The notes: a model not told the origin generated them from the letters alone. A stretch of 64,000 nucleotides of DNA from Candidatus Latescibacterota bacterium (GCA_965243025.1 CBDETY010000003.1:5120001-5184000), one strand, 5' to 3'; shown: positions 26,609 through 63,240, counted from the first letter of the stretch. Program-made: numbers and translations.

Positions 26609-27262
26609 TCATCCCCAAAGCCGCGGATCGACCCTCGCCTCGGCGAGGTACAGCTCTACCGCCCGCAGCGACCTGGCGATCACCGCGGCGATGTCCGGTG
26701 GGTAGCGGGCGAACGCCTCCGCGGTTATCCGCGCGCGTCCCGGTTCGCCGGGACCATCGGCGTAACGCACCGCCGCCTCGACGCTTTCGGTTTCCCCTTC
26801 GAGCAGCCGCAGCAGCGGTTTCAGCGGCACGTGCAGGAAGCCGTCGCTCTCCTCGCTGAAAGACACCTCTTCCAGCCCGATTTCCCGGATCACCAGGTAG
26901 GAGTGCTGGATCACGCGGGGGCAGTTCCGCTCCTGCCCTTCCAGCCGGGTGCTGCCGAGATAGTGGAGGTCCCGCTCCCCGAGAAGGATGCCGGCCTCCT
27001 CCTCGAACTCGCGCACCCCCGCCTGGCGGTGCGACTCGGAGGCCATGACGTGGCCGCCCGCGGGGGCATCGAGACTGCGGACGAAGGGGTCGCCGCGGCG
27101 CCCCCGTTGCTGCAGCAGCAGAACCGGCTCGGCGCCGCGCAGCCATGCGCACCAGACGAACACCAGCCAGTGCCAGTCCCCGTCCCTGTGGACCTCGTCG
27201 CGGGTCTTGGAACCGAGCCGGCGGCCGGCGCCGTCGAAGAAAGCGAGAACTTCCGCGCTCAC
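26609..27262 (-). CDS. NUDIX hydrolase, IPP-isomerase-like
   Basis: RDEVHRDGDWH, LLQQR and AGGHV...GVREFEEEAG; GTG overlaps the rhomboid stop. Confidence 0.8.
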   Translation of the reverse strand: MSAEVLAFFDGAGRRLGSKTRDEVHRDGDWHWLVFVWCAWLRGAEPVLLLQQRGRRGDPFVRSLDAPAGGHVMASESHRQAGVREFEEEAGILLGERDLHYLGSTRLEGQERNCPRVIQHSYLVIREIGLEEVSFSEESDGFLHVPLKPLLRLLEGETESVEAAVRYADGPGEPGRARITAEAFARYPPDIAAVIARSLRAVELYLAEARVDPRLWG

Positions 27263-28065
27263 CCCGAAATGACGGCGATGAACTGGAACAGGAAGGCGAA
27301 GATGGTCAGGGCCAGCAGGGCGCCTGCCAGCAGGTAGGTGCCGATTCCCTCGCGGTCGCTGTAGTCGCGGCTGAAGGCGTAGGCGGTGACGTAGCCGCCG
27401 GCGAAGCCGCCCGCGTGGGCCCAGTTGTCGACCCCGGAAAAGATGAAGCCGAAGATGAAGAGGATCACCGCCCACTGCAGGAAGTGGCGGGTGAACATCG
27501 AGCTGCCGCGCTGGCGGCCGAAGACGATGGCGGCGGCGAGCAGTCCGAAGATGGACCCGGAGGCCCCGAGGGTGTAGTGGTTGCCCATCAGCACGGAGAG
27601 GGCGAAACCACAGGCCCCGGATACGGTGAATATGATGAACAGGCGGAACGGCCCGAACAGCTCGCTGACCATCGGCCCGAGCTGCCGCACCCAGAGCATG
27701 TTGAAGAGGATGTGCAGAAGCCCCCCGTGCAGGTAGATCGCGGTGATAATCGTCCACCAGTGCCCCTGCACCATCACGGGAACGACCCCGGTCATTCCGA
27801 GCATCAGGGTCGCGTTCCCGCTCGGGGCCAGAAAGCGGAACAGGTCGAAGCTGCGGAAGATGGCGCCGGGATCAATCGCCAGTCCGACGATGTAGAGAAT
27901 GACGCACACCGTGGTGATCAGGCTGGGAAAGTCGATGGAGACCCCCAGCTTGCGGAACCACGAGGTGAACCCCCACATGCCGGGCCTCACCTGGCCGCAA
28001 AAGGGACAGCGCGCTTCGGAGCTGCTGATCAGCTTGTGGCACCTGGGACAGAGGATGGCGGGCAT
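27259..28065 (-). CDS. Rhomboid intramembrane serine protease with N-terminal zinc ribbon
   Basis: CPRC...CPFC, HGGLLHILFNM, GASG (Ser) and AHAGG (His). Confidence 0.92.
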   Translation of the reverse strand: MPAILCPRCHKLISSSEARCPFCGQVRPGMWGFTSWFRKLGVSIDFPSLITTVCVILYIVGLAIDPGAIFRSFDLFRFLAPSGNATLMLGMTGVVPVMVQGHWWTIITAIYLHGGLLHILFNMLWVRQLGPMVSELFGPFRLFIIFTVSGACGFALSVLMGNHYTLGASGSIFGLLAAAIVFGRQRGSSMFTRHFLQWAVILFIFGFIFSGVDNWAHAGGFAGGYVTAYAFSRDYSDREGIGTYLLAGALLALTIFAFLFQFIAVISG

Positions 28066-28307: not shown

Positions 28308-29227
28308 CTATTTTGAAAGGCTGGCCTTTATCCCGGCCCATGAAACGCTGTTGACAGCGGAATCTCCGATCGAATTTCCAGCCTCGACCAGGATTCCCCG
28401 AGCCCAGAGGTCGGACGATGAAAAATCGTCCTGCTCCCACCACTCATCAGATCCCCACAATTCATGCACACTCTCGAAACTCCATTTGTCTTCGTCGACG
28501 TCGGATAGTGAGAGCCCGAACCATATCATTTTTTCGGGAATAAGAGGGGAGACGATACTTTGGTCCTGGTCATCCCAGATAAGTCGGTCGAAGGGGGTGA
28601 CGTAAAACTCCAACACCCCGAAGGGTGGCTGGCTGTCAATCACCGCGCCGCCGCCATCGGCAAAGGGCGGCCGGTAAACCCAATCCGGGTCATCACGACT
28701 GACCCCGGGCGTGTAGACGTTGGTTCCGTCTTCATATGAACCAGGAAACGCCCCGTACCATTGCGCCTGCTCCATTCGATTTGTGAGCCCGGATGCGTTG
28801 TCGATTTCCAGGCTTCCACCGCTCCTGTCCCCGTCGACATAAAACCACAGGGATAAATCGCCGTCAGTGATGCCTGGCCCGAATGTGAAACGGTCGTTGG
28901 AACGCGCGTGGACAAATCGTCGACCATTTCCGCCGCTACGAAATGGTGGTTACTGCCGTGGTGCCAGGCCAACCAGATACGGAAGTCGAAAGAGGAGGGA
29001 TCGTACTGGTACCCCCAATTCGGGTAAAGTGCCAAATCCAGCGGCGTCAACGACGGCTCCCCGAGGACTTCCAACCAGTCATCCACGGAGCCGTCTTTGA
29101 GGTCGATGCGATCCCGCATCTCGTCGGTCAGCTCGACGAACGGATACAGCCGGTCTTGAAACTGTGCTTCCAGAGAAGCCCCTGTCAGCAGGATGAGGAT
29201 GGCAACGCGCCATGGTATGTACTGCAT
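28308..29227 (-). pseudogene. WGxIKA-tail CBM9-like family paralogue P5, frameshifted
   Basis: N-half (ORF 28640-29257) and C-half (frame of 28308-28775) both match neighbour P6; one T missing at GAC GAT TT(T) GTC, positions 28914-28916. Confidence 0.8.
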
Positions 29228-29357
29228 GAGAAATACCCCCTGTCGGCTCCTGAACAAGACCCCCGCGGGATACGGGAGCAGTCAGCTCTCAGAAGGCAGC
29301 ATTTCGGGTGCGGCAGAGTGTGCCACTACATGGTCGGGATCCGTTGGCGTGGCCGGG

Positions 29358-30263
29358 TTATTCCGAAAGGCTGGCCTTGATGCGGCCCCATGAAACGCCG
29401 GTGACAGCGGAATCCTCCGTACTTCCCGCCTCCATCAGGATTCCGCGCGCCCAGAGGTCGGAATCGTTGAACCCTCCCTGCTCCCAACCATCCTCGATTC
29501 CGAACAAGCCGGGACTGCTCTCGAATTCGTTGGCGTCGTCGACATCCACTATCTGGATACTGAACCCGATCGTTTTCCCGGAGAATAGATTGGAGACGAT
29601 ACTCTGGGCCTGGTCGTCCCAGATCAAGCGATCGAATGGGGTGACGTAAACTTCCACCACACCGAAACTCGGCTCGCTGTCGATCATGGCGCCGCCGCCG
29701 TCGGCGTAAGGGGGCTTGTGCACCCAATCCGTATGCCTGCTCACCAAGCGCAGAAGAAGGTTGTTGTCGTTGTCGAATGTTCCCGGAAACGCCTCATACC
29801 ATTGTGCCTGCTCCATGGGGTAGGCAAGCCCGGATGCGTTGTCGACCAGCAAGGTTCCGCCGCTCCTGTCCCCGTCGACGCCAATCGCCACGGATAGATC
29901 CGACCCGCGCAATCCACCTCTGTCGCTGCGGTCGTAGGTTCGCTCGTTTACGAAGTCGTCGACCAGCTCCATGGCCAGGAAAAGGTGATCGTCGGAATCG
30001 TGCCAGGCCACCCAGATGCGAAAGTCCAACGAGGATGGGTCGTATTCCGACGCCCATTCGGCGAATTGAAAATCCAACGGCGTCAGGGAGGGCTCTCCGA
30101 GGATTTCAACCCATTCCTCGATCGAACCGTCGGTCAGGTCGATTTTTTCCCGCATTTCATCGGTCAGCTCGGGGATCTGATAAACCCGGTCCGGGGCCGA
30201 TGCTTCTGTAGAGACCGCGATTATCACAAGGGAAATGGGGATCGGGATAATTCGTTCTTTCAT
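29358..30263 (-). CDS. Secreted CBM9/DOMON-like protein with C-terminal SWGRIKASL tail (P6)
   Basis: Signal peptide; AAGGAG RBS; IDLTDGSIEEW, DFRIWVAWHD, VDGDRSGG, EVYVTPFD and GKTIGF. Confidence 0.8.
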   Translation of the reverse strand: MKERIIPIPISLVIIAVSTEASAPDRVYQIPELTDEMREKIDLTDGSIEEWVEILGEPSLTPLDFQFAEWASEYDPSSLDFRIWVAWHDSDDHLFLAMELVDDFVNERTYDRSDRGGLRGSDLSVAIGVDGDRSGGTLLVDNASGLAYPMEQAQWYEAFPGTFDNDNNLLLRLVSRHTDWVHKPPYADGGGAMIDSEPSFGVVEVYVTPFDRLIWDDQAQSIVSNLFSGKTIGFSIQIVDVDDANEFESSPGLFGIEDGWEQGGFNDSDLWARGILMEAGSTEDSAVTGVSWGRIKASLSE

Positions 30264-30422: not shown

Positions 30423-31799
30423 TCAATGCTCCTGCCTGAGCCGGTCCAGCAGCCGGCCCAGTTGTCCCACGAGGTAAAGCGGCAGGGAGAGCAGGGTCAT
30501 TTCCACGCTCTGCTGCGTTCCGCTCACCTGGTGCCGGATTGACTGGACGGTGGGCGGATTGAGGTCGAAGCGCACTGCGAGGCGCGTCCCTTTGGCCAGG
30601 GCGAACTGGTGCAGGGAGCGCAGGGTGCCGCTGGTGCCGGCTTTGACTTCGACCGGCACGATCCGGGCTCCCCGGGCAACCGTGTAGTCAACTTCGGCGT
30701 TGGCGCTTTTCCCTTCTCGCAGCCAGTAGTTCAGACGGGGCGTTTCCCGGCCCTCTTCCAGGTAGAGCAGGTGTTGCCCCACGAACTGTTCGGCCAGGGC
30801 TCCTTCATTGACCAGTCGGCGGTCGTCCAGGTCTTTCAGAGCAAGCCAGTCCAGGCCGCACAGACGGTTCATCAGGCCGATGTCCAGAAAGAGGAGTTTG
30901 TAGGTCTTCCAATCGACATCGGCGTGGAGGGGCACCCCGGAACAGGTACTGTGGAAGACAGGTGCAATGACCCGGGCATTGGCCAGCATGTCGATGGCCG
31001 CCCGCAGTTCGCGGGCGGTCTCCTCGGGGTTGATCCGGGTGTATTTGATTTTGCGGCCCACGGCCCGGGGAGCGTAGTTGAAGACTCGCTGCAAGCGCAG
31101 CCGGACTCGGGCGGAGGCGTACTTGGCAAAATCGTCCTGGTAGGTATCGACGATGGACTGATGCACCGGGGTTACGTCGGCAAAGTGGCGGGTGGAACTG
31201 TACGCGGCTACAGCTTCGGGCATACCACCCACCAGCAGGTATTCCCGCTGATAGCCCGACAAGCGGGTGTGGACAGTATGGGGCAGGGGATGCTCGGGGG
31301 TGTAGTCTTGCAGACAGGCCAGGAGGGGAGGGTCCAGTTCGGCAAGGAATTCTTCAAAGCTCATCGGGCCCAGATGGAAGTACTGAATGCGCCCTACCGG
31401 CATGGTAAAGGCGTGTTGCGAGAGGACGAACTCGAGCAGGGATCCCGCGGCGATGACCGGCAATTCGGGGTGGTCTTCGAAGAAATAGCGCAAGGCGGGA
31501 AGGGCGTGGGGGGTCGCCTGGATTTCGTCGAGGAAGAGAATGCTGCCCGGTGTCAACAGCGGTTGATCCAGCAGCCCTTCGAGTTCCAGGCGGATGCGTG
31601 TCAGGTCCAAGGTCTGGAAGACGGGGTCCAGGTCCGGGTGGCGCTCGAGGTTGATTTCGTTGAGGTGCAGGTGATGGGACTGGGCGAATTGCCGCACCAG
31701 GGTGGATTTCCCCACCTGGCGAGCACCGCGGATGACCAGCGGTTTTCGCTGTGGGGTGGCTAACCATTCGGCCAGAGCGAGTTCAGCCGATCTATACAT
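30423..31799 (-). CDS. AAA+ ATPase with DUF4143 and C-terminal PD-(D/E)xK-like domain
   Basis: GARQVGKST, FLDEIQ, AAGSLL, GGMPE, EGALAEQFV and EVDY...PVEVKAG. Confidence 0.9.
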   Translation of the reverse strand: MYRSAELALAEWLATPQRKPLVIRGARQVGKSTLVRQFAQSHHLHLNEINLERHPDLDPVFQTLDLTRIRLELEGLLDQPLLTPGSILFLDEIQATPHALPALRYFFEDHPELPVIAAGSLLEFVLSQHAFTMPVGRIQYFHLGPMSFEEFLAELDPPLLACLQDYTPEHPLPHTVHTRLSGYQREYLLVGGMPEAVAAYSSTRHFADVTPVHQSIVDTYQDDFAKYASARVRLRLQRVFNYAPRAVGRKIKYTRINPEETARELRAAIDMLANARVIAPVFHSTCSGVPLHADVDWKTYKLLFLDIGLMNRLCGLDWLALKDLDDRRLVNEGALAEQFVGQHLLYLEEGRETPRLNYWLREGKSANAEVDYTVARGARIVPVEVKAGTSGTLRSLHQFALAKGTRLAVRFDLNPPTVQSIRHQVSGTQQSVEMTLLSLPLYLVGQLGRLLDRLRQEH

Positions 31800-31806
31800 G
31801 ATGAAT

Positions 31807-31855
31807 AAAATGCCCCCTTTTCTGTGCGTATAATGTACGAAAAAGGGGGCATTTT
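31807..31855. promoter_or_regulatory. Perfect 15-bp inverted repeat immediately upstream of the ATPase start
   Basis: AAAATGCCCCCTTTT-19 bp-AAAAGGGGGCATTTT. Confidence 0.65.
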
Positions 31856-32051
31856 TACGAGAAAGGTTGGGCTTGTGCAAAGGGACATTGGCTGGCTTCG
31901 GGGTGTATCTTGATCCGATGGGGTACTGTCCATCCGCAGGGATACTTGACCCGGGGGCGTTGGGAAAATCGGACCCAGGTTCACGGAGCCCAGCTTTCCG
32001 GGATCGTCGCTGCTGACTTGCGGCCAAGCCAGGCGCGAGCAGTTACGGGGC

Positions 32052-44852: not shown

Positions 44853-45797
44853 ATGAGACCCTTTATCCATTTCAACAGGAGGTTTCCGGTGTGGTCACAG
44901 GCAATCTTCTTTTTGATTGTGGTATCGCTAATTGCTGGCTGCACCGCCGCGTTGGCCCACGAGGGGGAAAGAATCTATCCCATTTTCGAGATCACCGATG
45001 ACATGCTGGAGTTGATCGATCTGAAGGACCAGGGCGTCGAGGAGTGGGAAGAGTTATGGGAACCTTCGCTTACGACGCTGGACTTCACCAGGGAAGTTGT
45101 TGATGGCCGTACATCGACAAGAGAGATAGTCTCGAATGATCCGTCGGACCTGGATTTCCGGATGTGGGTGGGCTGGAACGACACGCACAATCGTCTGTAT
45201 GTGTCGGGACAATTCGCAGATGACATTTATTTGAGAGAGGGTACCATACGGCACGCTCCAGATTATATGAACTTCTACGTCGATGGCGACCACACCGGGG
45301 GACAGTACCATTACCTTACCGGAGACCGGTACCGGGACAACTATGCGCAGGCCCAGGCATATTGGGCACCGTTTCCCTGGGATCGGGGACTTCCCATTGA
45401 GATGGGCTATAACTCCTTTGGAGAACGCTACCAATCTGCATGGGCAGGAGAGCTTCCTTACGCCTACGGGAGAAACGGCGCTGAAGGGGAAAACCCTGTC
45501 GTCTGGAACGTTGAATTTTACATTACCCCGTTCGCCCTGCTGGATTATGATCCGGAAGACAGTCTGGTTTCCGAGTTGGAGAGGGGTAAGGTGATTGGCT
45601 TTTACATAGCAGTCGGAGATGGTGATATGGAAGACGAGGCAGGTAATTTTTACTACTTGGATAAAGGTGTTGGGACCCCCAACTCGAACGCGGATGCTTT
45701 TGTTGATGGAGTACTTCTAGGGGCCGGAGAGTTTGTGGAAGGCAGCGCCGTCCAACCGAGTTCCTGGGGCATGATAAAAGCCTCGTTGGGATACTGA
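44853..45797 (+). CDS. Secreted CBM9/DOMON-like protein with SWGMIKASL tail (P1)
   Basis: AAGGAG RBS; signal peptide ALA-HEG; family framework motifs. Confidence 0.8.
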   Translation: MRPFIHFNRRFPVWSQAIFFLIVVSLIAGCTAALAHEGERIYPIFEITDDMLELIDLKDQGVEEWEELWEPSLTTLDFTREVVDGRTSTREIVSNDPSDLDFRMWVGWNDTHNRLYVSGQFADDIYLREGTIRHAPDYMNFYVDGDHTGGQYHYLTGDRYRDNYAQAQAYWAPFPWDRGLPIEMGYNSFGERYQSAWAGELPYAYGRNGAEGENPVVWNVEFYITPFALLDYDPEDSLVSELERGKVIGFYIAVGDGDMEDEAGNFYYLDKGVGTPNSNADAFVDGVLLGAGEFVEGSAVQPSSWGMIKASLGY

Positions 45798-45857
45798 ACT
45801 GAGTTACCAGGTAGGAGTTGATGCTTCTGCCCCAAGGTACGGAAAGGAGGAACCCTC

Positions 45858-46808
45858 ATGAAAAGCAGAATTCTCTTTCACAAGGAGAGTTTGGCGTCGA
45901 GGCCTCTGCCCATTGTTTGTGTAGTGGAGGTATTACTGGTCCTTGGTTCTGTTCATTCTTACGCCCACCAGGGGGACAGAATCTATCCCATTTACGAGAT
46001 CACGGATGAAATGCTGGAATTAATTGATCTCGAAGATGGAAGGATCGATGAGTGGGAAGAATTATTCGAACCCTCGATTACGACGCTGGACTTTACCAGG
46101 AAAATTTTGGACCGGAATACTTCGAAAAGAGAAATAGTCTCGTATGATCCCTCCGACCTTGATTTTCAAATCTGGCTGGTTTGGAACGAAACCCACAACC
46201 GTCTGTATGTTTCGGGTCAGTTCGCGGACGATATACATGTGAGAGATAAAGAGGGTAAAAGACGCCGATCACCCGATTATATGTACTTTCACGTTGACGG
46301 GGACCACAGCGGTGGGGAATACCGGGGCCTTACGGGAGATCGGTACTGGGAAGATTTCACGCATGCCCAAACGTACACCGCCCCGTTTTTTTACGAACTG
46401 GAATTCCCCCTTGGGTTAAGTTACAACACCTTTGGTCAACCCTACGAATTTTCCTGGGTAGGGGAGCTCCCCTACGCCCACGGGGGAGAAGGAGCAAACG
46501 GAGAAAACCCAGTTGTCTGGAATGTCGAGTTTTTCATAACTCCGTTTGATTTTCTCGATCCTGAACCGGAAAACAGTATAGTTTCAGAGTTGGACAGGAA
46601 TAAAATCATTGGCTTTTACATAGTTGTCGGAGATGGTGAGGTTCGAGAGGAGAGTGATTCCTACAGTCTGGATGAAGTGGAAGGGGCCCCTGGTTGGACT
46701 GCGGACGATTTTGTTGATGGATTCCTGATTGGCGCCGGTGAGTTTGCGGAAGGCAGCGCAGTCCAGCCGAGTTCCTGGGGAATGATAAAGGCCTCCTTGG
46801 GATACTGA
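45858..46808 (+). CDS. Secreted CBM9/DOMON-like protein with SWGMIKASL tail (P2)
   Basis: AGGAGG RBS; signal peptide SYA-HQG; family framework motifs. Confidence 0.8.
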   Translation: MKSRILFHKESLASRPLPIVCVVEVLLVLGSVHSYAHQGDRIYPIYEITDEMLELIDLEDGRIDEWEELFEPSITTLDFTRKILDRNTSKREIVSYDPSDLDFQIWLVWNETHNRLYVSGQFADDIHVRDKEGKRRRSPDYMYFHVDGDHSGGEYRGLTGDRYWEDFTHAQTYTAPFFYELEFPLGLSYNTFGQPYEFSWVGELPYAHGGEGANGENPVVWNVEFFITPFDFLDPEPENSIVSELDRNKIIGFYIVVGDGEVREESDSYSLDEVEGAPGWTADDFVDGFLIGAGEFAEGSAVQPSSWGMIKASLGY

Positions 46809-46868
46809 GGGGCAAGCTGGTTCATCCGTTGAAGCCTGAATAATCCCTCCAGAATAGGAGAATTCCCA

Positions 46869-47836
46869 ATGACACCCGAGAAGGTCCATAAAAAAATTCC
46901 TGTAACGCCAAAAATTCCTGTAACACTGTTACTTGAATTTTCTGTATTATCCAGATTTCGTTGCTCCTTGGGTCTTTCCATGCATCCGCCCACCGGGGAG
47001 ATAGAGTCATTCCCATTTACGAGATCACGGACGACATGCTGGAGTTTATAGATCTTGATGACGGGAGCATAGACGAGTGGGATGAGCTATTCGAGCCCAC
47101 CCTTACCACACTGGATTTCACCAGACAGATTTTGGACCGGAATACGTTGAATAGAGAGACAGTGGCCTACGATCCAGCGGACCTGGACTTCAGAATTTGG
47201 CTTGGATGGAATGACACCCACAACCGGTTGTATGTCTCAGGACAGTTCGCAGACGAAGTGCATGTCAGGGAGCGTAAGAGTTTTGAGGAACTAGATTGTC
47301 TGTACTGGCACATCGATGGCGACCATTCGGGGGGTCCATATCAGTTTTTTTCTGGAGAACGGTCTCAGGCAAGCCTTCGGCATGCTCAGTCATACACCGC
47401 ACCTTTTGAATACGAGCCAGAACTTTCCGTGGGGTTGAGGTATAATTCTTTTGGGGAACCTTACGAATTTGATTGGGCAGGTTACCCACCCTACGCCCAA
47501 GGGGGTGACGGGGCTGCGGGTGAGTTTCCGATCGTCTGGGTTGTGGAATTTTTCATCACTCCTTTTGACTACCTTGATGACGACCCGGAAGGCAGTGTGA
47601 TTTCCGAGTTGGAGGGCGGTAAAGTGATCGGGATATTCCTCGCAGTCGGAGATGGAGACTTGGACTCATCCGAAGGTGATGGATACAGAATTTATGATAG
47701 TTCCAAAGGTGGTGGGAACCCTCACGAAACCGCAGACGCTTTTGTTGATGGTGCGCTTTTGCACGCGGATGGGCAATTTGAAAGTGTGGTCCTACCCAGT
47801 TCCTGGGGTTTGATCAAAGCATCGTTGATATACTAG
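46869..47836 (+). pseudogene. Family paralogue P3, frameshifted within the signal peptide
   Basis: AGGAG RBS precedes ATG 46869, but the mature domain lies in the frame of 46961; a 1-bp insertion near 46945 restores LLEFSVIIQISLLLG, matching P4. Confidence 0.7.
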
Positions 47837-47904
47837 GTAGGAAATGTAGTTTGAAAATTGACTCCGTGTGTTTCCCGAAATTCTTAGCGAAAGAGGAATC
47901 TTCC

Positions 47905-48861
47905 ATGAAAGCTAGGATTAAAGTTCCCCAAAAAGGAATTGGAATTCGGATTCTACAACTTACCGTTATGGTCCAGGTGTCGCTCCTCCTTGGAGCTCCT
48001 CGTTCCTTCGCCCACCAGGGGGAAAGGATCTATCCTTTTTATGAAATCACGGATTACATGCTGGAGTTGATCGATCTGGAAGACGGAAGCATTGAGGAAT
48101 GGGAAGAGCTGTTCGAACCTTCACTTACCACGCTGGACTTTACCAGGAAAATTTGGGACCGCAATACGTTGGATAGAGAGATAGTGTCTTATGATCCTTC
48201 GGACCTTGATTTCAGAATCTGGATGGCTTGGAACGACAAACACGAACGTCTGTATGTGGCAGGACAGTTCGCGGATGATATACATGTGAGAAAGGGGAGC
48301 AGAAACCTGGCACCAGACTATATGTGGTTTCACATAGACGGTGACCACACCGGGGGGGAGTACTATTTCCTTACGGGAAACCGTTTCCGGGATAATCTCG
48401 CTCATGCCCAGACATACACTGCGCCGTTTTTTTTCGAACCAGAATTTTCCCTTGGGTTGATGTATAACACCTTCGGAGAACCCTTCGAATTTGCCTGGGC
48501 GGCGGAGCTTCCTTACGGCTTCGGAAGAGACGGCGCTGAGGGGGAAAACCCTGTGGTCTGGAATGTCGAATTTTTCATAACTCCGTTCGACCTCCTGGAT
48601 CCTTATCCGGAAAATAGTATGGTTTCCGAGTTGGAGAGTGGAAAAGTGATTGGCTTTTACATTGGAGTAGGAGATAGTGATTTGGACGAAGAGGAAGGTG
48701 ACGGATACAATATTTATGATAGGTCCAAGGGTGGGGGGAACCCTTCACAAACGGCTGACGCTTTTGTTGATGGAGTCTTACTGCGGGCCGGAGAATTTGT
48801 GGAAGGCAGCGCCGTCCAACCGAGTTCCTGGGGCATGATAAAAGCCTCCTTGAGTTACTAA
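47905..48861 (+). CDS. Secreted CBM9/DOMON-like protein with SWGMIKASL tail (P4)
   Basis: GAGG RBS; signal peptide SFA-HQG; family framework motifs. Confidence 0.8.
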   Translation: MKARIKVPQKGIGIRILQLTVMVQVSLLLGAPRSFAHQGERIYPFYEITDYMLELIDLEDGSIEEWEELFEPSLTTLDFTRKIWDRNTLDREIVSYDPSDLDFRIWMAWNDKHERLYVAGQFADDIHVRKGSRNLAPDYMWFHIDGDHTGGEYYFLTGNRFRDNLAHAQTYTAPFFFEPEFSLGLMYNTFGEPFEFAWAAELPYGFGRDGAEGENPVVWNVEFFITPFDLLDPYPENSMVSELESGKVIGFYIGVGDSDLDEEEGDGYNIYDRSKGGGNPSQTADAFVDGVLLRAGEFVEGSAVQPSSWGMIKASLSY

Positions 48862-48958: not shown

Positions 48959-49429
48959 ATGATTTTCCCGAACCATTTGCGAGCCCTGAAAATCATTTGC
49001 GGCACCCTCCAAAACACTGAAGTCGTCTGGGCGATTACCGGCAGCCTCGGTTTAGCGCTCCGGGGCATGGAGCTCGAAGTCAACGACATCGACCTGCAGA
49101 CCGATGCGGCCGGTGCCTACGGCATCCAGAACGCCTTTTCCGGGAGCATTGTTCGCCAGGTCCGGCTTTCCATGTCCGAGGAAATCGCCTCTCACTGGGG
49201 AGAGTTGGAAATAGAGGGGGTCAAGGTCGAAATAATGGGCGGGCTACAGAAGAAAAGCCCGGACCGTACCTGGGAACCCCCGGTTGAAGTGGAACAACAC
49301 CTGGAATTCGTGCCATTCGAAGGCATGATGCTGCCGGTCCTGTCCTTGAAGTACGAGGAGCAGGCCTACCGGAAACTTGGAAGAGCCGAAAAGGCCGACC
49401 GAATCAAGGACTGGCTCACCCGCAGTTAA
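48959..49429 (+). CDS. Nucleotidyltransferase-fold protein
   Basis: WAITGSLGLAL...NDIDL (GS...DxD) and KVEIMG. Confidence 0.7.
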   Translation: MIFPNHLRALKIICGTLQNTEVVWAITGSLGLALRGMELEVNDIDLQTDAAGAYGIQNAFSGSIVRQVRLSMSEEIASHWGELEIEGVKVEIMGGLQKKSPDRTWEPPVEVEQHLEFVPFEGMMLPVLSLKYEEQAYRKLGRAEKADRIKDWLTRS

Positions 49430-49523: not shown

Positions 49524-49689
49524 TTACTTGCCTGGTTCGTTCGGCTCTTGCATCGATGACTCAGCTTCTCCGGGTTCCTCCTCGACGAATCCTCGACTCA
49601 TGAGGTAAGTCGCTTTCGCACAGCAGGGGGGCGGCTCTCGCGGCTTTCTCTGCTCGGGAGAACTCGGCCAGAATGCACGCGGAATTCAC
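49524..49689 (-). pseudogene. HEPN-domain toxin remnant with internal deletion
   Basis: GTG overlaps the MNT stop; N-terminal ILAEFSRAEKAARAAPLL joined out of frame to C-terminal YLMSRGFVEEE; no R-x4-6-H/Y core. Confidence 0.55.
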
Positions 49690-50021
49690 AGGACGGGAAC
49701 TCCGTCTCTTGTCACGGTCTGCCAGAAAGGGGCTCGATCCTCGCGGCGCTGCTCCCATTCTTCCCTCGTGTAAACTACAAAGGAAGGCACCACCTCCGTG
49801 CCGATGGCCAGCATGTTGCCCGGACGGCTGATTTCTCCTTTTCGGCGCCAGTCTCCTTCCGCGATGACGAGGAGGAGGTCCAGATCCGAATCAGGGGTGG
49901 AATCGCCGCGGGCCTTGGAGCCGAAAATCAGAAACTCTTCCACAAGGCCGGGAAACTGGTCGTCCAGAATCTGGCGGTATGCATCGAGCCACCGCTGTTC
50001 TTCCGGGGTCAGGTGGAGCAT
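49686..50021 (-). CDS. Minimal nucleotidyltransferase (MntA-type antitoxin)
   Basis: IFGSKARGDSTPDSDLDLLLV; 111 aa. Confidence 0.88.
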   Translation of the reverse strand: MLHLTPEEQRWLDAYRQILDDQFPGLVEEFLIFGSKARGDSTPDSDLDLLLVIAEGDWRRKGEISRPGNMLAIGTEVVPSFVVYTREEWEQRREDRAPFWQTVTRDGVPVL

Positions 50022-50048: not shown

Positions 50049-52154
50049 TCAGTAAGCCACGGCCACCGGGATGATGGACTGGAAGCGGCCTCTTCCGGTC
50101 TCGGCGGCGACTTCGCACAGATACACCCCCGGTGTGAGCGCCCTCCCCTCCTCGTCCCTTCCGTCCCATTCGAGCGCGTGCGTACCCGGGCCGGCGCTCG
50201 TGCCCATGATGCGGCTCACCGGGTTTCCGCCCAGGTCGTAGAAGGCGACCTCGACATCGGTTTCGAGCACGCCGAACAGGGCGAACCGGATCTCCATTGA
50301 ATCGTTGAAGCCGTCGCCGTTGGGGGTGAGCGTGCGCGGGCGGATGTCGACGACGGAGATCGTCCGCTCCACCTCGTTCCCCGAAGCGAGCACCTGCAGG
50401 CTGTTGCTGGCGATCTCCACGGTGGCGTCCCCCCCGATGACGGGCTGGCCGCGGCCGGGTCGGGTGCGGTTGAAGACCTCCCCCTCCAGCTCCTCGGCGA
50501 CGGTGTACAATGCGGTGCCGAACCCGATGCGGAGATCCTCGTCGGCCTCGATGCGCCGCGGCAGGTAGACGGTCAGGCCCCGCCCGTCGATGGCGACGCT
50601 GTCCGGCGCCACCTCGTCGAGGGGGGTACCGATGCACAGGCTCCGGAACGTCGGCGGCGAAGGGGTGCCGATGCGGACCGCGTCGAAGCCGCCGCCGACC
50701 TCCTCGAACTCGGCGCTGATGGCGTAGGACAGCTCGACCTCCTCTCCGAGAGGAACGTCGGAAGCCAGAGGGGACAGGCCGTCGCCGGCCTTCGCCACTT
50801 CCCCGACCACACGGTCGGCGAGCAAGGGGATGATCTCGATCGACAGCGAGTCCAGCCGCGCGAAGTCGTAGGGCTTCCCCGATCGCATTTCGATCTGCAC
50901 GGCGAACCAACGGCCGCTGGCGAGACCGGGGCGGGTGCCGGATTCGGCGAGAGGCCCGGACCAGGGGGACCAGTTTTCGAAATCGTCGGTAATCGGTCCC
51001 TGCGAGCCGACGAAAACGACCGCCCCGTGACTGGACTGCACCTGCAGCCGGTCGTACTCCTCGCGGTCGACGACCACCAGCTCGAGCTGGTCGTTCAGGG
51101 TGTGGTACTGCCGGTAATCGTCGGTCGTGCCTGTCTTGACGCGGACTCCGATGTCGGCGTCAGCGTCCGGGGTCTGCACCGGTTCCAGGTTCTCGTCGAG
51201 ACGCCACCTGCTGACGCCCGGCTCGATCTTTCCAAGGGTTGCCGGTCTCCCCAGGTCGATCGCTTTCGTCGTGTAGCGGGACAGGGCCGCGACGCCGCGC
51301 CCGTACACCTCGAACTCGGCGTAGGCGAGCTTGGCCACGAACGGCCAGCTGCCGACCCCCGCACTTGTAGCTACTCCGTCGGGAAAAGTCCGCCAGCGCA
51401 GGTAGCGCAGGTACCGGGTCGGGAAGGGGACCACGATCGGGGCGGTGACGTTTTCCGCAACTTGGCCGAGCAGGAACTCGAGCGGCCGGTAAGAGGTTGA
51501 GCAGATGTACTTGTTCTCGAGGTGGCAGTCGTTCTGCTGCCCCCGCAGTTCCAGGCGGATACGCTCCTCGTCGTCGGCCCCGGACAGCTCTCCGGACCTG
51601 GGGATGAAGTTGGAGAACGGTTCGCCGGAACGGTGGGTGACCGAGTCGGGGGGCGTCTGCACCTGGAAGCGCTCGAGGGGAACGAGGGTGCCCAGGTCGA
51701 AGGTCCAGAACTCGTGGTTCATCTTGTCGCCCGGGGACCCGAAGCCGAGCTGCCACCAGAAGGTGTTGCGGTCGCCGTCGATGTAGGTGAAGGCCTTCTC
51801 CGTGTACCACCCCCTTTGCTCGGTGCCGCGCCAGATCCTCGGCATGCCGTCGACGAAATACGGGTCGAAGGGGTTCTTGTAGTAATGCCAGGTCGCCACC
51901 TCGAAGAGCCGGGGAAGCAGGTTCTCGTCCGGTTTCAGGATGCGGGGCCGCAGCATCCCCGGATCGGTGAAATCGTCGGCCATGACGTTGAGGTCGACGT
52001 GGGCTCGCCAGTTCTCGCCGCCGGCCCCTCCGAAAACCCATCTCCCCTCATCCTGCGCCCAGGTTGAAGGCGCCAGTGCGAGGCCGGCAGAAAGCAGGCC
52101 CGCGGCACACCGGGTTTTCACGTCACGCGCAATGTCGGTCGAGCGGGTGTCCAT
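50049..52154 (-). CDS. Secreted protein with C-terminal FlgD-Ig / T9SS-CTD-like domain
   Basis: Signal-like TWA-Q; C-terminal LTPNGDGFND...YDLGG...WDGRDEEG...PGVY; start uncertain. Confidence 0.75.
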   Translation of the reverse strand: MDTRSTDIARDVKTRCAAGLLSAGLALAPSTWAQDEGRWVFGGAGGENWRAHVDLNVMADDFTDPGMLRPRILKPDENLLPRLFEVATWHYYKNPFDPYFVDGMPRIWRGTEQRGWYTEKAFTYIDGDRNTFWWQLGFGSPGDKMNHEFWTFDLGTLVPLERFQVQTPPDSVTHRSGEPFSNFIPRSGELSGADDEERIRLELRGQQNDCHLENKYICSTSYRPLEFLLGQVAENVTAPIVVPFPTRYLRYLRWRTFPDGVATSAGVGSWPFVAKLAYAEFEVYGRGVAALSRYTTKAIDLGRPATLGKIEPGVSRWRLDENLEPVQTPDADADIGVRVKTGTTDDYRQYHTLNDQLELVVVDREEYDRLQVQSSHGAVVFVGSQGPITDDFENWSPWSGPLAESGTRPGLASGRWFAVQIEMRSGKPYDFARLDSLSIEIIPLLADRVVGEVAKAGDGLSPLASDVPLGEEVELSYAISAEFEEVGGGFDAVRIGTPSPPTFRSLCIGTPLDEVAPDSVAIDGRGLTVYLPRRIEADEDLRIGFGTALYTVAEELEGEVFNRTRPGRGQPVIGGDATVEIASNSLQVLASGNEVERTISVVDIRPRTLTPNGDGFNDSMEIRFALFGVLETDVEVAFYDLGGNPVSRIMGTSAGPGTHALEWDGRDEEGRALTPGVYLCEVAAETGRGRFQSIIPVAVAY

Positions 52155-52322
52155 GTCGTAAATCTCCGGCTCGGGCGGAAAGACATGGTGCTGCGGTGAA
52201 GATACCAGATCCCGGCACTTGCCCAAGTCCCGGGAACGGCAGCTCCCCCGGCGGCAAGGGGGACGTGGACAGCCCGGGGGTGCCCGGCATAGGTTGGGCC
52301 TTGATTATCCGGGGGTAACGAC

Positions 52323-54499: not shown

Positions 54500-55492
54500 C
54501 TATGCGACTGTTCGACATCGCAGGCGCCGGTCGTCCACGTCCCCCGCCGCCTCAACCATCACCTCGAGCGCCTCCCGGGAGCTCGCCTCGTTTGCATCGG
54601 GCTTCTGTTTCAGTCCCCACGACGAACCCATGACCCTGTCGCAGAAGGCGCCCGCGAAAATCCGCTCCTCGTTTTCCCCCAGCAGATCGCTGAAAACCGT
54701 TACGGCTTCGAGCAGAATCTCCCGCTTTTCCGCAGCGGTATCTCCGAACCCCATCGCGTTGTTGATGAACCGGCCGGCGTCCAGGCAGGCGGCGCCGACG
54801 ACGCCCTTGGGATCGATCGCCTTCCAGCCCCGGGCGGCGTCGGACAGGATGTTCCAGTGATGGAGGTCTCCGTGCAGCAGCATCTGAGGTTCATCCCGTT
54901 CCATCAGGATGCCCATCATGGACTCTACGCGCGGAATCTGCTCCATACAGCTGCGTGCTCTTTCGGCATCCTCGCAGCTTCGGGCGTCCGCGAAAGCGCT
55001 TCGCATCCAGTCCATGAAGTGAGGCAGTGCGTGGTTCGCCGGCAGGGGGGTGGCGTGCAGGTCCTGAAGGATTCGCGCGGCGATCTCGATTCGCTCACGG
55101 CTGTTCCCGACAGAGTCGAGCGTTCTGCCGGGGCGCAGCCGTTCGAGCAGCATGGCGTTGAGCTCTTTGTCGCTGTCGATGAGCCGGTTGATTCCGCGGC
55201 CCTGATAAATCGCCAGCGCTTCCATCTCCGCGCTGAAATCGCCGTGCGGGACCCCCACCTTGAGCACGGCTTCTTCTCCACTGTCCCTCTCGACGCAGGC
55301 GATATAGTTGGCCTTGATGTCTCCGGCCGGCTGGCCGAGTGTCAGGCCCCACTTGTCGCGGCACCGCCTGAGAATGGACGGGAGTTCCTCGAGCCAGGTC
55401 TCCCCTTTACTGCCGAATTCCCCGGTGGCGTAACGCAGGAATCGCTCGGGAAATGGCGGTGAGTGGATGGAATCAGGGATTTTCCTGCTCAA
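54500..55492 (-). CDS. Aminoglycoside/hydroxyurea resistance kinase family (APH(6)-like)
   Basis: AVLKVG, LLERLRPG, LLHGDLHHWNIL and AIDPKG. Confidence 0.85.
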   Translation of the reverse strand: MSRKIPDSIHSPPFPERFLRYATGEFGSKGETWLEELPSILRRCRDKWGLTLGQPAGDIKANYIACVERDSGEEAVLKVGVPHGDFSAEMEALAIYQGRGINRLIDSDKELNAMLLERLRPGRTLDSVGNSRERIEIAARILQDLHATPLPANHALPHFMDWMRSAFADARSCEDAERARSCMEQIPRVESMMGILMERDEPQMLLHGDLHHWNILSDAARGWKAIDPKGVVGAACLDAGRFINNAMGFGDTAAEKREILLEAVTVFSDLLGENEERIFAGAFCDRVMGSSWGLKQKPDANEASSREALEVMVEAAGDVDDRRLRCRTVA

Positions 55493-55683: not shown

Positions 55684-56586
55684 ATGAACAGAATCCTGAT
55701 CATCATGGCCATGGTGGCCATGGCAGAAGCGCACACCGGAACCCGCCTCTACCCCTTCTACCAGTTGACGGATGAGATGCTGGAGGAGATCGACCTGCAC
55801 GATGGGTCGATAGACGAATGGTACGAGGTTGGCGAACCGAGCATGGCCTTACTGGACTTCGAAGCCTGGGGAGGAGGCCTCCCCCACGATCCCTCCAACC
55901 TCGACTTCCGCGTCTGGCTTGCCTGGCACGACGAACCAGACCGGGTTTATGCAGCTTTCATCATCGCCGACGACATTTTCCGAAACCACAACTATACCGA
56001 AGGTTCCTGGCTGTTTGCTTATGACAGCATTGTTTTCCAGATCGACGCCGATCACCGGGGAGGACAGGGAGAAGGCCAGTGGTACTCTCCTACCAGGGAG
56101 CAGTTGATGGAAGTGCACGGGGACGCACAGAGGTACTCGGCGGTGGCTCGAACAGCAAGCGGGCCAGTCCTGGACGACGGGACCTGGTGGGAATATGGGG
56201 GAGAAGTACCAAAGTCCTGGAGGGTTTACCCTCCTTACGGAGATGCAGGAGGGATGGCGGCAGGAGAGAATCCCACCATAAGCGTAATCGAGCTGTATGT
56301 CACGCCGTATGACGAGTGGGGAGACGATGTGGAGGAAACCAGATTCAGCGACCTGTCTGCACACCAGGTTGTCGGTTTTTCTGTTGAAGTAATTGAGCAG
56401 GAAGAGGACCCATCTGAATGTGGATGCAGTGGGTTTTCCTGGTATCCGGCAGAAATGGAAGGCCAGGCCTGGCTCGATCTTTTGGACAGTAAGGCGGATC
56501 TCTATGTCGATGGGCTGTTACTTTCCGCTCCGGATACAGCCGTAGAATCCGTAACCTGGGGAAGGATCAAGGCGTCCCTGGAGTAG
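55684..56586 (+). CDS. Secreted CBM9/DOMON-like protein with TWGRIKASL tail (P7)
   Basis: Short signal peptide AEA-HTG; IDLHDGSIDEW, DFRVWLAWHD, IDADH and ELYVTPYD. Confidence 0.8.
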   Translation: MNRILIIMAMVAMAEAHTGTRLYPFYQLTDEMLEEIDLHDGSIDEWYEVGEPSMALLDFEAWGGGLPHDPSNLDFRVWLAWHDEPDRVYAAFIIADDIFRNHNYTEGSWLFAYDSIVFQIDADHRGGQGEGQWYSPTREQLMEVHGDAQRYSAVARTASGPVLDDGTWWEYGGEVPKSWRVYPPYGDAGGMAAGENPTISVIELYVTPYDEWGDDVEETRFSDLSAHQVVGFSVEVIEQEEDPSECGCSGFSWYPAEMEGQAWLDLLDSKADLYVDGLLLSAPDTAVESVTWGRIKASLE

Positions 56587-61671: not shown

Positions 61672-63240
61672 TCACGCCGTCCCGCGGGAATTGTGCGCGT
61701 CGAACAGCGCGATGATTCGGCTCGCGTCCGGACGCCGCATGCGGCGGGCGATACTCCAGGGTGTTCTCCCGGAATCGTCTTCGCGGTGCGGGTCGGCCCC
61801 GTGGGACAGCAGCAGCTCGACGGTTTTGACCATGTCCGCCCGGGGTCCGGCCTTCAGCGCGTAAATCAGGGGAGTCTTCCCCCGTTCGCTCGGCGCGTCG
61901 ACCGGGGCATGGTTTCTCAGCAGCACTTCCATTGCACCGGTAAATCCCGCCCTGGCGGCATAGTGCAGCGCCCCGGCGCCGCGCAGCACCGTGTCGATTC
62001 GGGCGCCCCTGTCCAGCAGGGCCTGGACGTAGCCGGGATCGTCCCTCTGGCTGTTGTTTCCCGTACATGTCCTCCATACCCAGTCCCCTTCCGGGTAGTT
62101 GACGTCGGCCCCGTGCCTCATCAGGAGGGCGGAGGCCCCCGGATCGAGGACCCAGCGCCCGCACCCGATCCTCGAGGCGTCGGCCCCTCGCTCCAACAGC
62201 AGCCTGAGCAGGCGGGTCTGTCCCCGGCCGGCGGCGTACCTGACCAGTGGAGTGCTGTTGACACCCGGTTCGGCGCCCGTTTCGAAGAGCAACCTCACGG
62301 CCTCTTCGTGTCCTCCGTAAACGGCATGATGGACAGGCGTTACGGGAAGGAGATCGCAGGCGGGATCGTGTGCGTTGACCAGACCGGGTACTTCCTGGAG
62401 CAGCGTCGAAATCCGGTCCGGATCGCCGAGAAAGCAGGCGCTGAAGATGTCGTACACGGCTCCCCGGTCCCGAAGAACCCCGGCGGTTTCGAGTTTGTTC
62501 CTGCAGCGGGCGGCGCAGTACGGAGTCAGCATGAGATCGCTCGTGCGCGGCGCCGGCAGGTTGGCGTCAACTCCCCGGTCCAGCAGCATGGCCGCTACGG
62601 CGGTGCGGCCCCGCAGGGCGGCTTCAACCAGGAGGATCGCCCCATGCGACGGATCGCTCAAAACGGCTGGATCTTCGTCGAGGAATCGGTTCAGTTCTTC
62701 CAGCTGACCCCGGGCCGCCAGTCTGGCCGGCTCCCTGTATCTCTTCTCCCTGTGGCATCGCAGTTGCCGCCGGTTTTTCGGGGGGTTATCCTCGTTGACC
62801 AGGCCGTGAGCGAGGGGTCCGAGGGTCGCAAGAACCTCCTCGACGAGCCGCTCCTCCCCGAGGTTGTCGCGCAGGGAGGCGGTCATGTGCATCAGCCACC
62901 GCTCCGCGGATTCCCGGGTGATGTGGATATGTCCGTGTCTGCTTTTTATTCCCCCATAGGCATGATGAAGGGTGTAATCCCGTTCACCGCCCATCCATTC
63001 TTCCATGAAGGCTTTCTGCTTCATGCGTTCGGAAGCCAGCGTCCGGGTGAACATGGGACGCAGTTCGGCGTCATTCTCGATGCGGTCATACAGACCGTCG
63101 ATGATTCTCCCGACAACGGAGCGGCCCCCGATCCGGGCAAACAGGGTCGGATCGGGCCTCAGGTTTGGGGCGAGGCCGCCGCGGTGGGCCAGGGCAGCCC
63201 GCACGCTGGAGGACTCAGGTATACTGCAGGCGGCAGGCAC
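61672..63240 (-). CDS. Truncated globin (group II-like) fused to ankyrin repeats
   Basis: LFARIGG...LYDRI...LRPMF...WMGG...SRHGHIHIT...WL; then TPVHHA, TPLVRYA, ALHYAA and TPLIYA repeats; start uncertain. Confidence 0.8.
   Translation of the reverse strand: MPAACSIPESSSVRAALAHRGGLAPNLRPDPTLFARIGGRSVVGRIIDGLYDRIENDAELRPMFTRTLASERMKQKAFMEEWMGGERDYTLHHAYGGIKSRHGHIHITRESAERWLMHMTASLRDNLGEERLVEEVLATLGPLAHGLVNEDNPPKNRRQLRCHREKRYREPARLAARGQLEELNRFLDEDPAVLSDPSHGAILLVEAALRGRTAVAAMLLDRGVDANLPAPRTSDLMLTPYCAARCRNKLETAGVLRDRGAVYDIFSACFLGDPDRISTLLQEVPGLVNAHDPACDLLPVTPVHHAVYGGHEEAVRLLFETGAEPGVNSTPLVRYAAGRGQTRLLRLLLERGADASRIGCGRWVLDPGASALLMRHGADVNYPEGDWVWRTCTGNNSQRDDPGYVQALLDRGARIDTVLRGAGALHYAARAGFTGAMEVLLRNHAPVDAPSERGKTPLIYALKAGPRADMVKTVELLLSHGADPHREDDSGRTPWSIARRMRRPDASRIIALFDAHNSRGTA

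Follow-up and report, generated by a model that had tools for sequence, protein, structure and literature searches.

A lineage-specific family of putatively exported CBM9-like proteins with variable loops and a conserved C-terminal tail in a Candidatus Latescibacterota genome

We analyzed a 64,000-nucleotide stretch of DNA from Candidatus Latescibacterota bacterium (GCA_965243025.1, CBDETY010000003.1:5120001-5184000; the window, with positions counted from its first letter), which carries an array of four related genes, head to tail, at 44853-48861. Pfam and NCBIfam searches of the window copies returned nothing above cut-off. With a probability of roughly one half, we propose that the encoded proteins are exported single beta-sandwich modules of the CBM9 type, putative extracytoplasmic binders whose ligands are set by their loops, which are addressed by a C-terminal tail and whose repertoire arises by birth and death of genes. 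Each protein would consist of one CBM9-type beta-sandwich, then a flexible linker, and then a short conserved tail. These modules would bind outside the cytoplasm without enzymatic activity, most likely to glycans or other extracellular polymers, with differences in ligand among paralogues arising from the loops. The tail would direct all of them to a common site, or a common docking partner, at the cell envelope, and a coupled pair of conserved histidines (His1 and His147) may make up a metal site with a role in stability or binding. The repertoire would grow and shrink by tandem duplication, divergence, loss, and pseudogenization, with no dedicated hypermutation.

We built a family profile from six of the window copies and searched the 6.8-Mb genome of which the window is part. 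The profile made 114 six-frame matches there; at E<1e-5 it matched 111 open reading frames (ORFs), of which 78 are near full length, spanning the whole domain, and many lie in tandem clusters. A preliminary description of this DNA had counted seven copies at three loci, which holds for the window but not for the family, since further copies exist beyond it. Within the same taxonomic family, the profile was positive in 24 of 24 and then in 63 of 63 sampled genomes, with first-look candidate counts of up to 160 or more in the window's genus. Weaker relatives were present in 27 of 28 genomes from six further families of the phylum (best E 1e-12 to 1e-45), and no relatives of the profile were found in 59 genomes of seven other families. 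A search of 1.84 billion cluster representatives returned 994 relatives at E<=1e-3 and 274 at E<=1e-30. By record title, the 40 loci confirmed in named records belong to Candidatus Latescibacterota (25), Gemmatimonadota-type bacteria (10), Aminicenantes (2), Handelsmanbacteria (1), and "uncultured bacterium" (2). The 6.8-Mb genome carries some 80 intact copies of this lineage-specific multigene family, along with fragments; at ~0.95 kb each, the intact genes make up ~1% of the genome (length times count). The family, unannotated and apparently exported, marks a whole lineage of Latescibacterota-type bacteria.

We assessed the fold with an AlphaFold2 model of copy 1, made from an alignment of 115 sequences with the signal peptide attached (pLDDT 87.4, pTM 0.83). 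Foldseek matched the model to CBM9 modules (7nwn, E 2e-9; 1i82, E 4.8e-7), and VIA-align placed it on CBM9 modules with Z scores of 18.6, 18.0, and 17.0 and an rmsd of 2.7-3.2 Å over 184-186 residues. A sequence-profile search of the PDB found 1i82 at E 0.026 with collinear motifs. Alignment by hhalign to three CBM9_1 proteins of the same genome, which themselves score 30.6-35.7 bits against PF06452, gave 96.9% and E 1.5e-10, a score to which a shared tail adds. In the ESM Atlas, copy 2 neighbors clusters in which 13-94% of members bear CBM9_1. The preliminary description had guessed a CBM9/DOMON-type fold, and because the model, the profile search, hhalign, and the ESM Atlas all point to CBM9, that guess is right. 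By the model and these comparisons, the family is a divergent, unannotated branch of CBM9. Invariant and near-invariant columns among the 115 sequences are Trp, Asp, Glu, Gly, Pro, Gln, Thr, Phe, and Leu; these sequences contain no catalytic or heme signature and no near-invariant Met, Cys, or domain Lys.

Compared with characterized CBM9 modules (PF06452; TmCBM9-2, 1i82; CkCBM9.3, 7nwn/7nwo), the family shares the beta-sandwich, with 184-186 of ~190 residues aligned, and the order of motifs (LYV..DD; vDGDH versus iDENNH; VIGF..v.D.D). It differs in several respects. CBM9 modules are appended to a glycoside hydrolase, whereas the window proteins stand alone and are apparently exported; they have ~65 extra loop residues, score below the Pfam cut-off, and add a mature N-terminal His coupled to the DGDH His, a 17-residue tail, and ~100 copies per genome. 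Our literature search found no description of the family, its tail, or its histidine pair. The preliminary description had proposed an undescribed system; what we see is a branch of a known module family rather than a system of several parts. A paper on sponge Latescibacterota, in the portion covered here, names CBM only as a dbCAN class and mentions neither CBM9 nor the window family (PMC12993501). The ankyrin, TPR, LRR, and FN3 "eukaryotic-like proteins" of sponge symbionts discussed in that portion are likewise large, lineage-specific expansions of putative binders, whereas the fold here is bacterial and CBM9-like. Strains of the lineage turn up in runs labelled sponge metagenome, among them one 90-99% similar to the window, and knowing the ligands would reveal how these uncultivated bacteria interact with extracellular polymers or with hosts.

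The proteins are predicted to be Sec-exported, as the preliminary description had supposed. A hydrophobic run followed by an AxA cleavage site is present in 73 of the 78 near full-length paralogues, with Ala at positions -3 and -1 in 45 and 67 of them, respectively; the cleavage site was inferred from the AxA motif and not from a predictor. In copy 1, residues 1-35 would form the signal peptide, His36 (codon 44958-44960, + strand; AxA|H) the first mature residue, residues 40-292 the CBM9-like domain, and residues 298-314 the tail. Mature proteins are ~280-290 residues long, are very acidic with a median net charge of -37, and lack cysteines.

The tail, approximately the last 17 residues (consensus TAVExxSWGRIKASL), is the most conserved part of the protein, and its Lys is invariant in all 78 paralogues. 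The stretches that encode it (repeat family D5, + strand; 45750-45795 in copy 1, and 46761-46806, 47789-47834, and 48814-48859 in copies 2-4) are 83-93% identical and are the best-kept DNA of the array. In the AlphaFold2 model, a disordered linker leads into the tail, which is predicted with low confidence as a short helix. We searched the genome with the pattern [ST]W[GA]x[IVLM]K, placed within the last 16 residues of an ORF, and found that it ends 30 non-family ORFs versus 1.05 expected. Most of these ORFs have signal peptides. Among the 20 that were scanned, ten carry Pfam domains of six unrelated kinds: Fasciclin, CBM9_1 (three), PD40 propellers (two), lipocalin-like, Cache (two), and Temptin_C. 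Elsewhere in ORFs the pattern is rare, occurring in spurious ORFs or in tails with short extensions.

The position of the tail invites comparison with the C-terminal domains of the type IX secretion system (T9SS; PF18962 Por_Secre_tail and PF13860 FlgD_ig), which serve as address elements at the C termini of Sec-exported proteins with diverse folds, as the tail seems to. T9SS genes are present in the genome (SprA, 470 bits, and two PorU, 615-621 bits, all above their cut-offs; a PorV-like gene at 96 bits, below its cut-off). No window copy matches PF18962 or PF13860, and the ~17-residue tail leaves no room for an Ig-like domain of ~80 residues. In seven long relatives found elsewhere, the match to the profile stops at position 280-290 of 304, so that the tail is missing; six of these relatives end in FlgD_ig/Por_Secre_tail, where the tail would sit, and the seventh carries LRR-type domains. 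A placement of the tail before T9SS domains was also considered and was never seen in the genome. Because the tail ends unrelated exported proteins, and because tailless long relatives mostly end in T9SS domains, it behaves, at the level of sequence, as a modular tag that takes the place of the type IX domain at the C terminus, and it looks like a putative undescribed address tag. If this is true, a very short C-terminal tag on unrelated exported proteins would be of general interest as a possible new sorting signal.

We then considered how the paralogues differ. Alignment of the copies bears out conserved framework blocks that alternate with length-variable stretches, and 56 invariant columns are common to the six uninterrupted window reading frames. 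Variation is concentrated in six segments (copy 1 numbering: 78-95, 125-137, 151-166, 173-196, 259-279, and the linker at 291-297), where the four array copies are 33-61% identical, versus 71-81% in the framework. The sugar clamp of CBM9 is formed by Trp71 and Trp175 in TmCBM9-2 and by Tyr89 and Trp191 in CkCBM9.3, as given in the portion of PMC8280721 used here. Trp71 and Trp175 of TmCBM9-2 align into variable segments 2 and 5, and the order of strands predicts a position at the clamp end of the sandwich for segments 2, 4, and 5.

We estimated selection on these segments separately. Among the four array copies (dS 0.7-2.2), omega was 0.18-0.54 in the variable segments and 0.09-0.16 in the framework. 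Three orthologue pairs between genomes G000 and G002, the latter a sister genome, gave 0.23-0.58 and 0.12-0.19, respectively (dS 0.31-0.51), and two flanking genes in the same pair of genomes gave 0.17 and 0.26. Between a strain represented in run X10 and the window, copy 1 shows 10 non-synonymous and 5 synonymous changes in the variable segments versus 4 and 11 in the framework (Fisher p 0.066). No segment comparison reached a dN/dS above 1 (0.18-0.58 in the variable segments; these are whole-segment estimates). Loops that vary faster than the core are normal in any beta-sandwich family.

The preliminary description had likened the array to an antibody-like repertoire. Its constant framework, with variation in defined segments that include the clamp positions, is what we observe; the antibody-like process is not, given an omega always below 1, no diversifying machinery near the array, and shared identical DNA of at most 53 nt. 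Diversification by a retroelement was rejected because the sole RVT_1 match in the genome (C3:1032098) lies more than 4 Mb from the array. We also rejected recent gene conversion within the array: nucleotide identity in sliding windows is 0.42-0.84, and the longest identical run, 53 nt, lies over the tail. A repeat analysis of the array found no template-like repeats. From these sequence comparisons, the array appears to evolve by birth and death under purifying selection with relaxed loops, and with no targeted hypervariation. A constant framework with variable loops is, on its own, no indicator of antibody-like evolution.

Several observations weigh against the proposal that these proteins are binders specified by their loops. 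First, none of eight window ORFs reaches the gathering cut-off of 23.4 bits for CBM9_1 (PF06452); the best, copy 1, scores 12.6 bits (E 0.13). Second, the clamp positions have no consensus residue in the family: in a loop alignment that is approximate, copies 1-4 have H/R, R/R, F/E, and N/L near the first position and N, G(W), H, and S at the second. As read from the sequences, this lack of conservation fits a changed specificity and a loss of sugar binding equally. Third, genomic context is uninformative: the array sits between a GFO/IDH/MocA oxidoreductase gene and nucleotidyltransferase genes, and no constant partner gene was found in 20 flanks of ten other clusters. Finally, the conserved histidine pair points to a role outside a plain lectin model.

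The first mature residue is His in 67 of the 78 paralogues, Gln in nine, Ser in one, and Asp in one; for the six window reading frames, it is His in five and Ser in one. This His is kept even in the most divergent paralogues, despite differing residues after it. The His of the DGDH motif (His147, copy 1) is present in 92% of paralogues. Over 186 pooled sequences, 151 carry both histidines, 1 carries His1 alone, 16 carry His147 alone, and 18 carry neither, so that His147 is kept in 151 of 152 sequences with His1 versus 16 of 34 without it (Fisher p 8e-15, a value that overstates the association, given the relatedness of the sequences and a possible overlap between the two sets). Both histidines are missing from the Pfam-positive CBM9_1 proteins of the same genome. 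The joint loss of His1 and the DGDH His therefore suggests a putative metal site. There is a precedent: a conserved His right after the signal peptide has been used to find and confirm new metal-binding families (PMC12537917, 2025, in part), and a term search within the portion of that paper covered here gave no mention of CBM9 or DOMON.

These observations raise a possible, though doubtful, alternative to loop-specified binders, namely that the proteins are metalloproteins in which copper or another transition metal is bound at a histidine-brace-like site made up of His1 and the DGDH His. They would then be either oxidative enzymes on a CBM9 scaffold, resembling lytic polysaccharide monooxygenases (LPMOs), or secreted metal-capturing proteins, and the loops would set the substrate or partner. 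Histidine-brace and other N-terminal-His metalloproteins (LPMOs, CopC, YcnI, and the PmoB CuB site; DUF4198 and DUF6702 in the portion of PMC12537917 covered here) also place a His directly after the signal peptide, and they share a second conserved His and a beta-sandwich body. However, their fold family is different, the metal site here is read from sequence, and His1 is present in 86% of paralogues; the 11 of 78 that lack it are intact and include the copy at 29358-30263, which is 84% conserved. The p value is weakened by the relatedness and possible overlap already noted, and the model was made with the signal peptide attached, with a pLDDT of 63 over residues 31-40. TmCBM9-2 also has a His at the matching motif, so the residue may be structural. 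Some 100 copies would be odd for metal homeostasis, and no LPMO is among the clear fold matches, where the only entry of histidine-brace type is fusolin (4yn1, E 0.024, TM 0.19).

A more tentative reading joins several of these features. The CBM9 scaffold would have lost its clamp to variable loops, gained a histidine-brace-like metal site, expanded to ~100 paralogues per genome, and come to be routed by a new 17-residue tag outside the T9SS. The class would then be one of undescribed secreted metalloproteins, possibly copper-dependent enzymes or metal-dependent binders. If such a site were confirmed, a first-residue His on the CBM9 fold would be of general interest as a possible new metal-site family.

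It is improbable, to a further degree, that the proteins are building blocks of the envelope or matrix: structural, calcium-binding coat or adhesion units docked by their tails, with loops that drift through exposure and not through ligand choice. The median net charge of -37 over ~290 residues without cysteines, a tail more conserved than the domain, and loop omega below 1 all agree with such a role, as do the conserved DD, DGD, and DxD motifs, which are collinear with CBM9, a module that holds three calcium ions (PMC8280721, in part). A coat, though, rarely needs ~80 diverged paralogues at 35-60% identity under purifying selection, and the fusions to PD40, LRR, and CBM9_1 modules that occur in relatives look like binding proteins.

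We regard as very improbable a fourth reading, that these are heme-binding DOMON proteins, extracellular b-type cytochromes that pass electrons like the gamma subunits of ethylbenzene dehydrogenase and nitrite oxidoreductase or the cytochrome domain of cellobiose dehydrogenase: the extracytoplasmic DOMON-type domains do share the superfold (2ivf_C, Z 11.4; NxrC 7b04_O, Z 11.1; 1d7b, Z 5.8), and the conserved His pair could in principle ligate heme, but CBM9 matches far better (Z 17-18.6), the Met or Lys that ligates heme in DOMON-type cytochromes is not near-invariant in the 115 sequences, and the array has no redox partner genes beside it.

The four array copies lie on the + strand and are GC-poor against their flanks, as are those at 28308-30263 and 55684-56586, in agreement with the ORF and GC readings of the preliminary description (GC 0.48-0.52 over 45-49 kb versus 0.64-0.69 in the flanks; 0.585-0.60 at the other two loci). 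Array ORFs are 291-336 aa long and recur with a period of 1008-1025 nt, each preceded by its own Shine-Dalgarno site. Copy 1 (44853-45797) is an intact ORF of 314 aa that matches the family profile at E 1.2e-153, with AAGGAG before its ATG; copy 2 (45858-46808) is an intact ORF of 316 aa that also matches the profile, with AGGAGG. Copy 3 (46869-47836) has an ATG at 46869 with a Shine-Dalgarno site, which is out of frame with the body ORF at 46961-47836. For copy 4 (47905-48861), a match to the profile, the listed ORF opens at TTG 47851, and the real start is most likely ATG 47905, which is preceded by AAGAGGA. Within the array, identity to copy 1 is 57-63%; for two outlying copies it is 36-38%. 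These are a 301-aa copy at 29358-30263 (- strand), whose predicted mature N terminus is Ser instead of His, and an intact 300-aa copy at 55684-56586 (+ strand), with orthologues in the sister genome that are 84% and 82% identical, respectively. The seventh copy, at 28308-29257 (- strand), consists of overlapping ORFs at 28640-29257 and 28308-28775, with profile positions 7-119 and 151-303 read in different frames.

Five of the seven window copies are thus intact, one is frameshifted in its signal peptide (copy 3), and one is broken in mid-gene (28308-29257). Reading copy 3 in three frames places the frameshift in a run of T at 46938-46941 and leaves no in-frame signal peptide in the window strain. 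Just 5' of this T run, the signal-peptide region contains an 18-nt in-frame tandem duplication (46892-46927; KIPVTP KIPVT). A promoter and terminator scan of the array gave matches at chance level, and co-transcription of the copies is likely because the coding strand between them contains no terminator-like site. Rfam had no matches in the window.

Lowered GC is a general property of the family, whose genes fall below the GC of their 5-kb flanks in 104 of 111 cases (median difference 0.059). Part of this is amino-acid composition, as family GC1 and GC2 are 0.62 and 0.43, versus 0.72 and 0.49 in the background. The array is lower still at third positions (GC3 0.52-0.59, versus a family median of 0.70 and a background median of 0.75). 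In the sister genome G002, the same position is occupied by an array of four copies that is likewise GC-poor (0.51-0.54), between flanking genes 84-94% identical to those of the window; the two outlying copies are 82-84% identical. This shared synteny led us to reject a recent horizontal arrival in the window genome alone. Copy 3 is the sole array copy with a close orthologue in G002 (86.5% identity), which has a full signal peptide there. The remaining three copies of the G002 array share no more than 65% identity with any copy in the window; two are frameshifted and one ends before the tail. For the copy at 28308-29257, we found no counterpart in the syntenic stretch of G002. In a quick maximum-likelihood tree, all array copies form one clade (support 98), within which copy 3 pairs with its orthologue (96) and a separate group unites copies 1, 2, and 4 (98). 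We did not find this subclade in G001, a third genome of the genus (93% complete), where the best match is 42% identical. The array is an old, low-GC subclade common to the window genome and one sister species; because the subclade is in G002 but was not found in G001, it may be an older acquisition.

Related strains differ in the array as well. Runs X6 and X10, with contigs 90-99% alike to the window, have one extra T behind 46937, which puts ATG 46869 of copy 3 back in frame, and runs X1 and X5 agree with the window at this frameshift. In run X10, a contig with a depth of 30 matches copy 1 at ~95% and continues after 45795 into unrelated sequence, while copies 2-4 have a depth of ~7. Since this contig leaves the array after copy 1, array content seems to differ between strains. 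From these sequence comparisons, the array appears to change through gain, loss, and decay of copies. The expanded repertoire that the preliminary description envisaged is borne out by copy number and by this turnover between species. Elsewhere in the genome, two family genes 2.7 Mb apart (G000:C3:3346565-3347521 and 6065643-6066599) encode identical proteins, which suggests a very recent duplication.

We surveyed the surroundings of the family loci. The other two window loci adjoin a rhomboid protease gene and a kinase gene. The rhomboid-family protease (PF01694, E 1.4e-27; 27259-28065, - strand) shares the strand of the genes at 28308-30263 and follows them immediately downstream, and the adjacency is kept in G002. 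On the other side of these copies is an AAA_14/DUF4143 ATPase gene (30423-32027, - strand), likewise with a lowered GC of ~0.60. The kinase gene, which is APH(6)-like (54500-55492, - strand), and an aminoglycoside-2''-adenylyltransferase-like gene (48959-49429, + strand) each flank a family locus and have a partial counterpart in G002; a small nucleotidyltransferase gene (49686-50021, - strand) also flanks a locus. A 725-aa protein encoded 1.2 kb from the array (50049-52226, - strand) has a C-terminal FlgD_ig as its only Pfam match and is therefore likely type IX cargo; it is only partly present in G002 (84% over 294 aa).

Flanks surveyed at other clusters include GH32, GH127, sulfatase, and TonB receptor genes, together with many large ORFs that had no match. 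Sigma-54 activators adjoin three of ten clusters (L097:606-3863, L105:3320-6502, and L111:4093-5955); two of them are ~1,060-1,090 aa long with Reg_prop repeats, and the third, of 621 aa, has a receiver and a PAS domain. PAS-HisKA_3 kinases lie beside two other surveyed clusters. The presence of these regulators beside clusters hints at regulated expression. Genes for A24-like membrane proteins (prepilin-peptidase family) lie immediately upstream of two clusters (G000:C3:5982146-5983345 and 2826019-2827140). We rejected this peptidase as a constant neighbor, as it is found beside two clusters only and is part of a segmental duplication, indicated by the 80% identity of the two loci. A third, broken copy of the A24-like gene lies inside one family cluster. 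Finally, within the window, a gene at 61672-63240 (- strand) encodes a bacterial-like globin domain (PF01152) joined to ankyrin repeats (Ank families).

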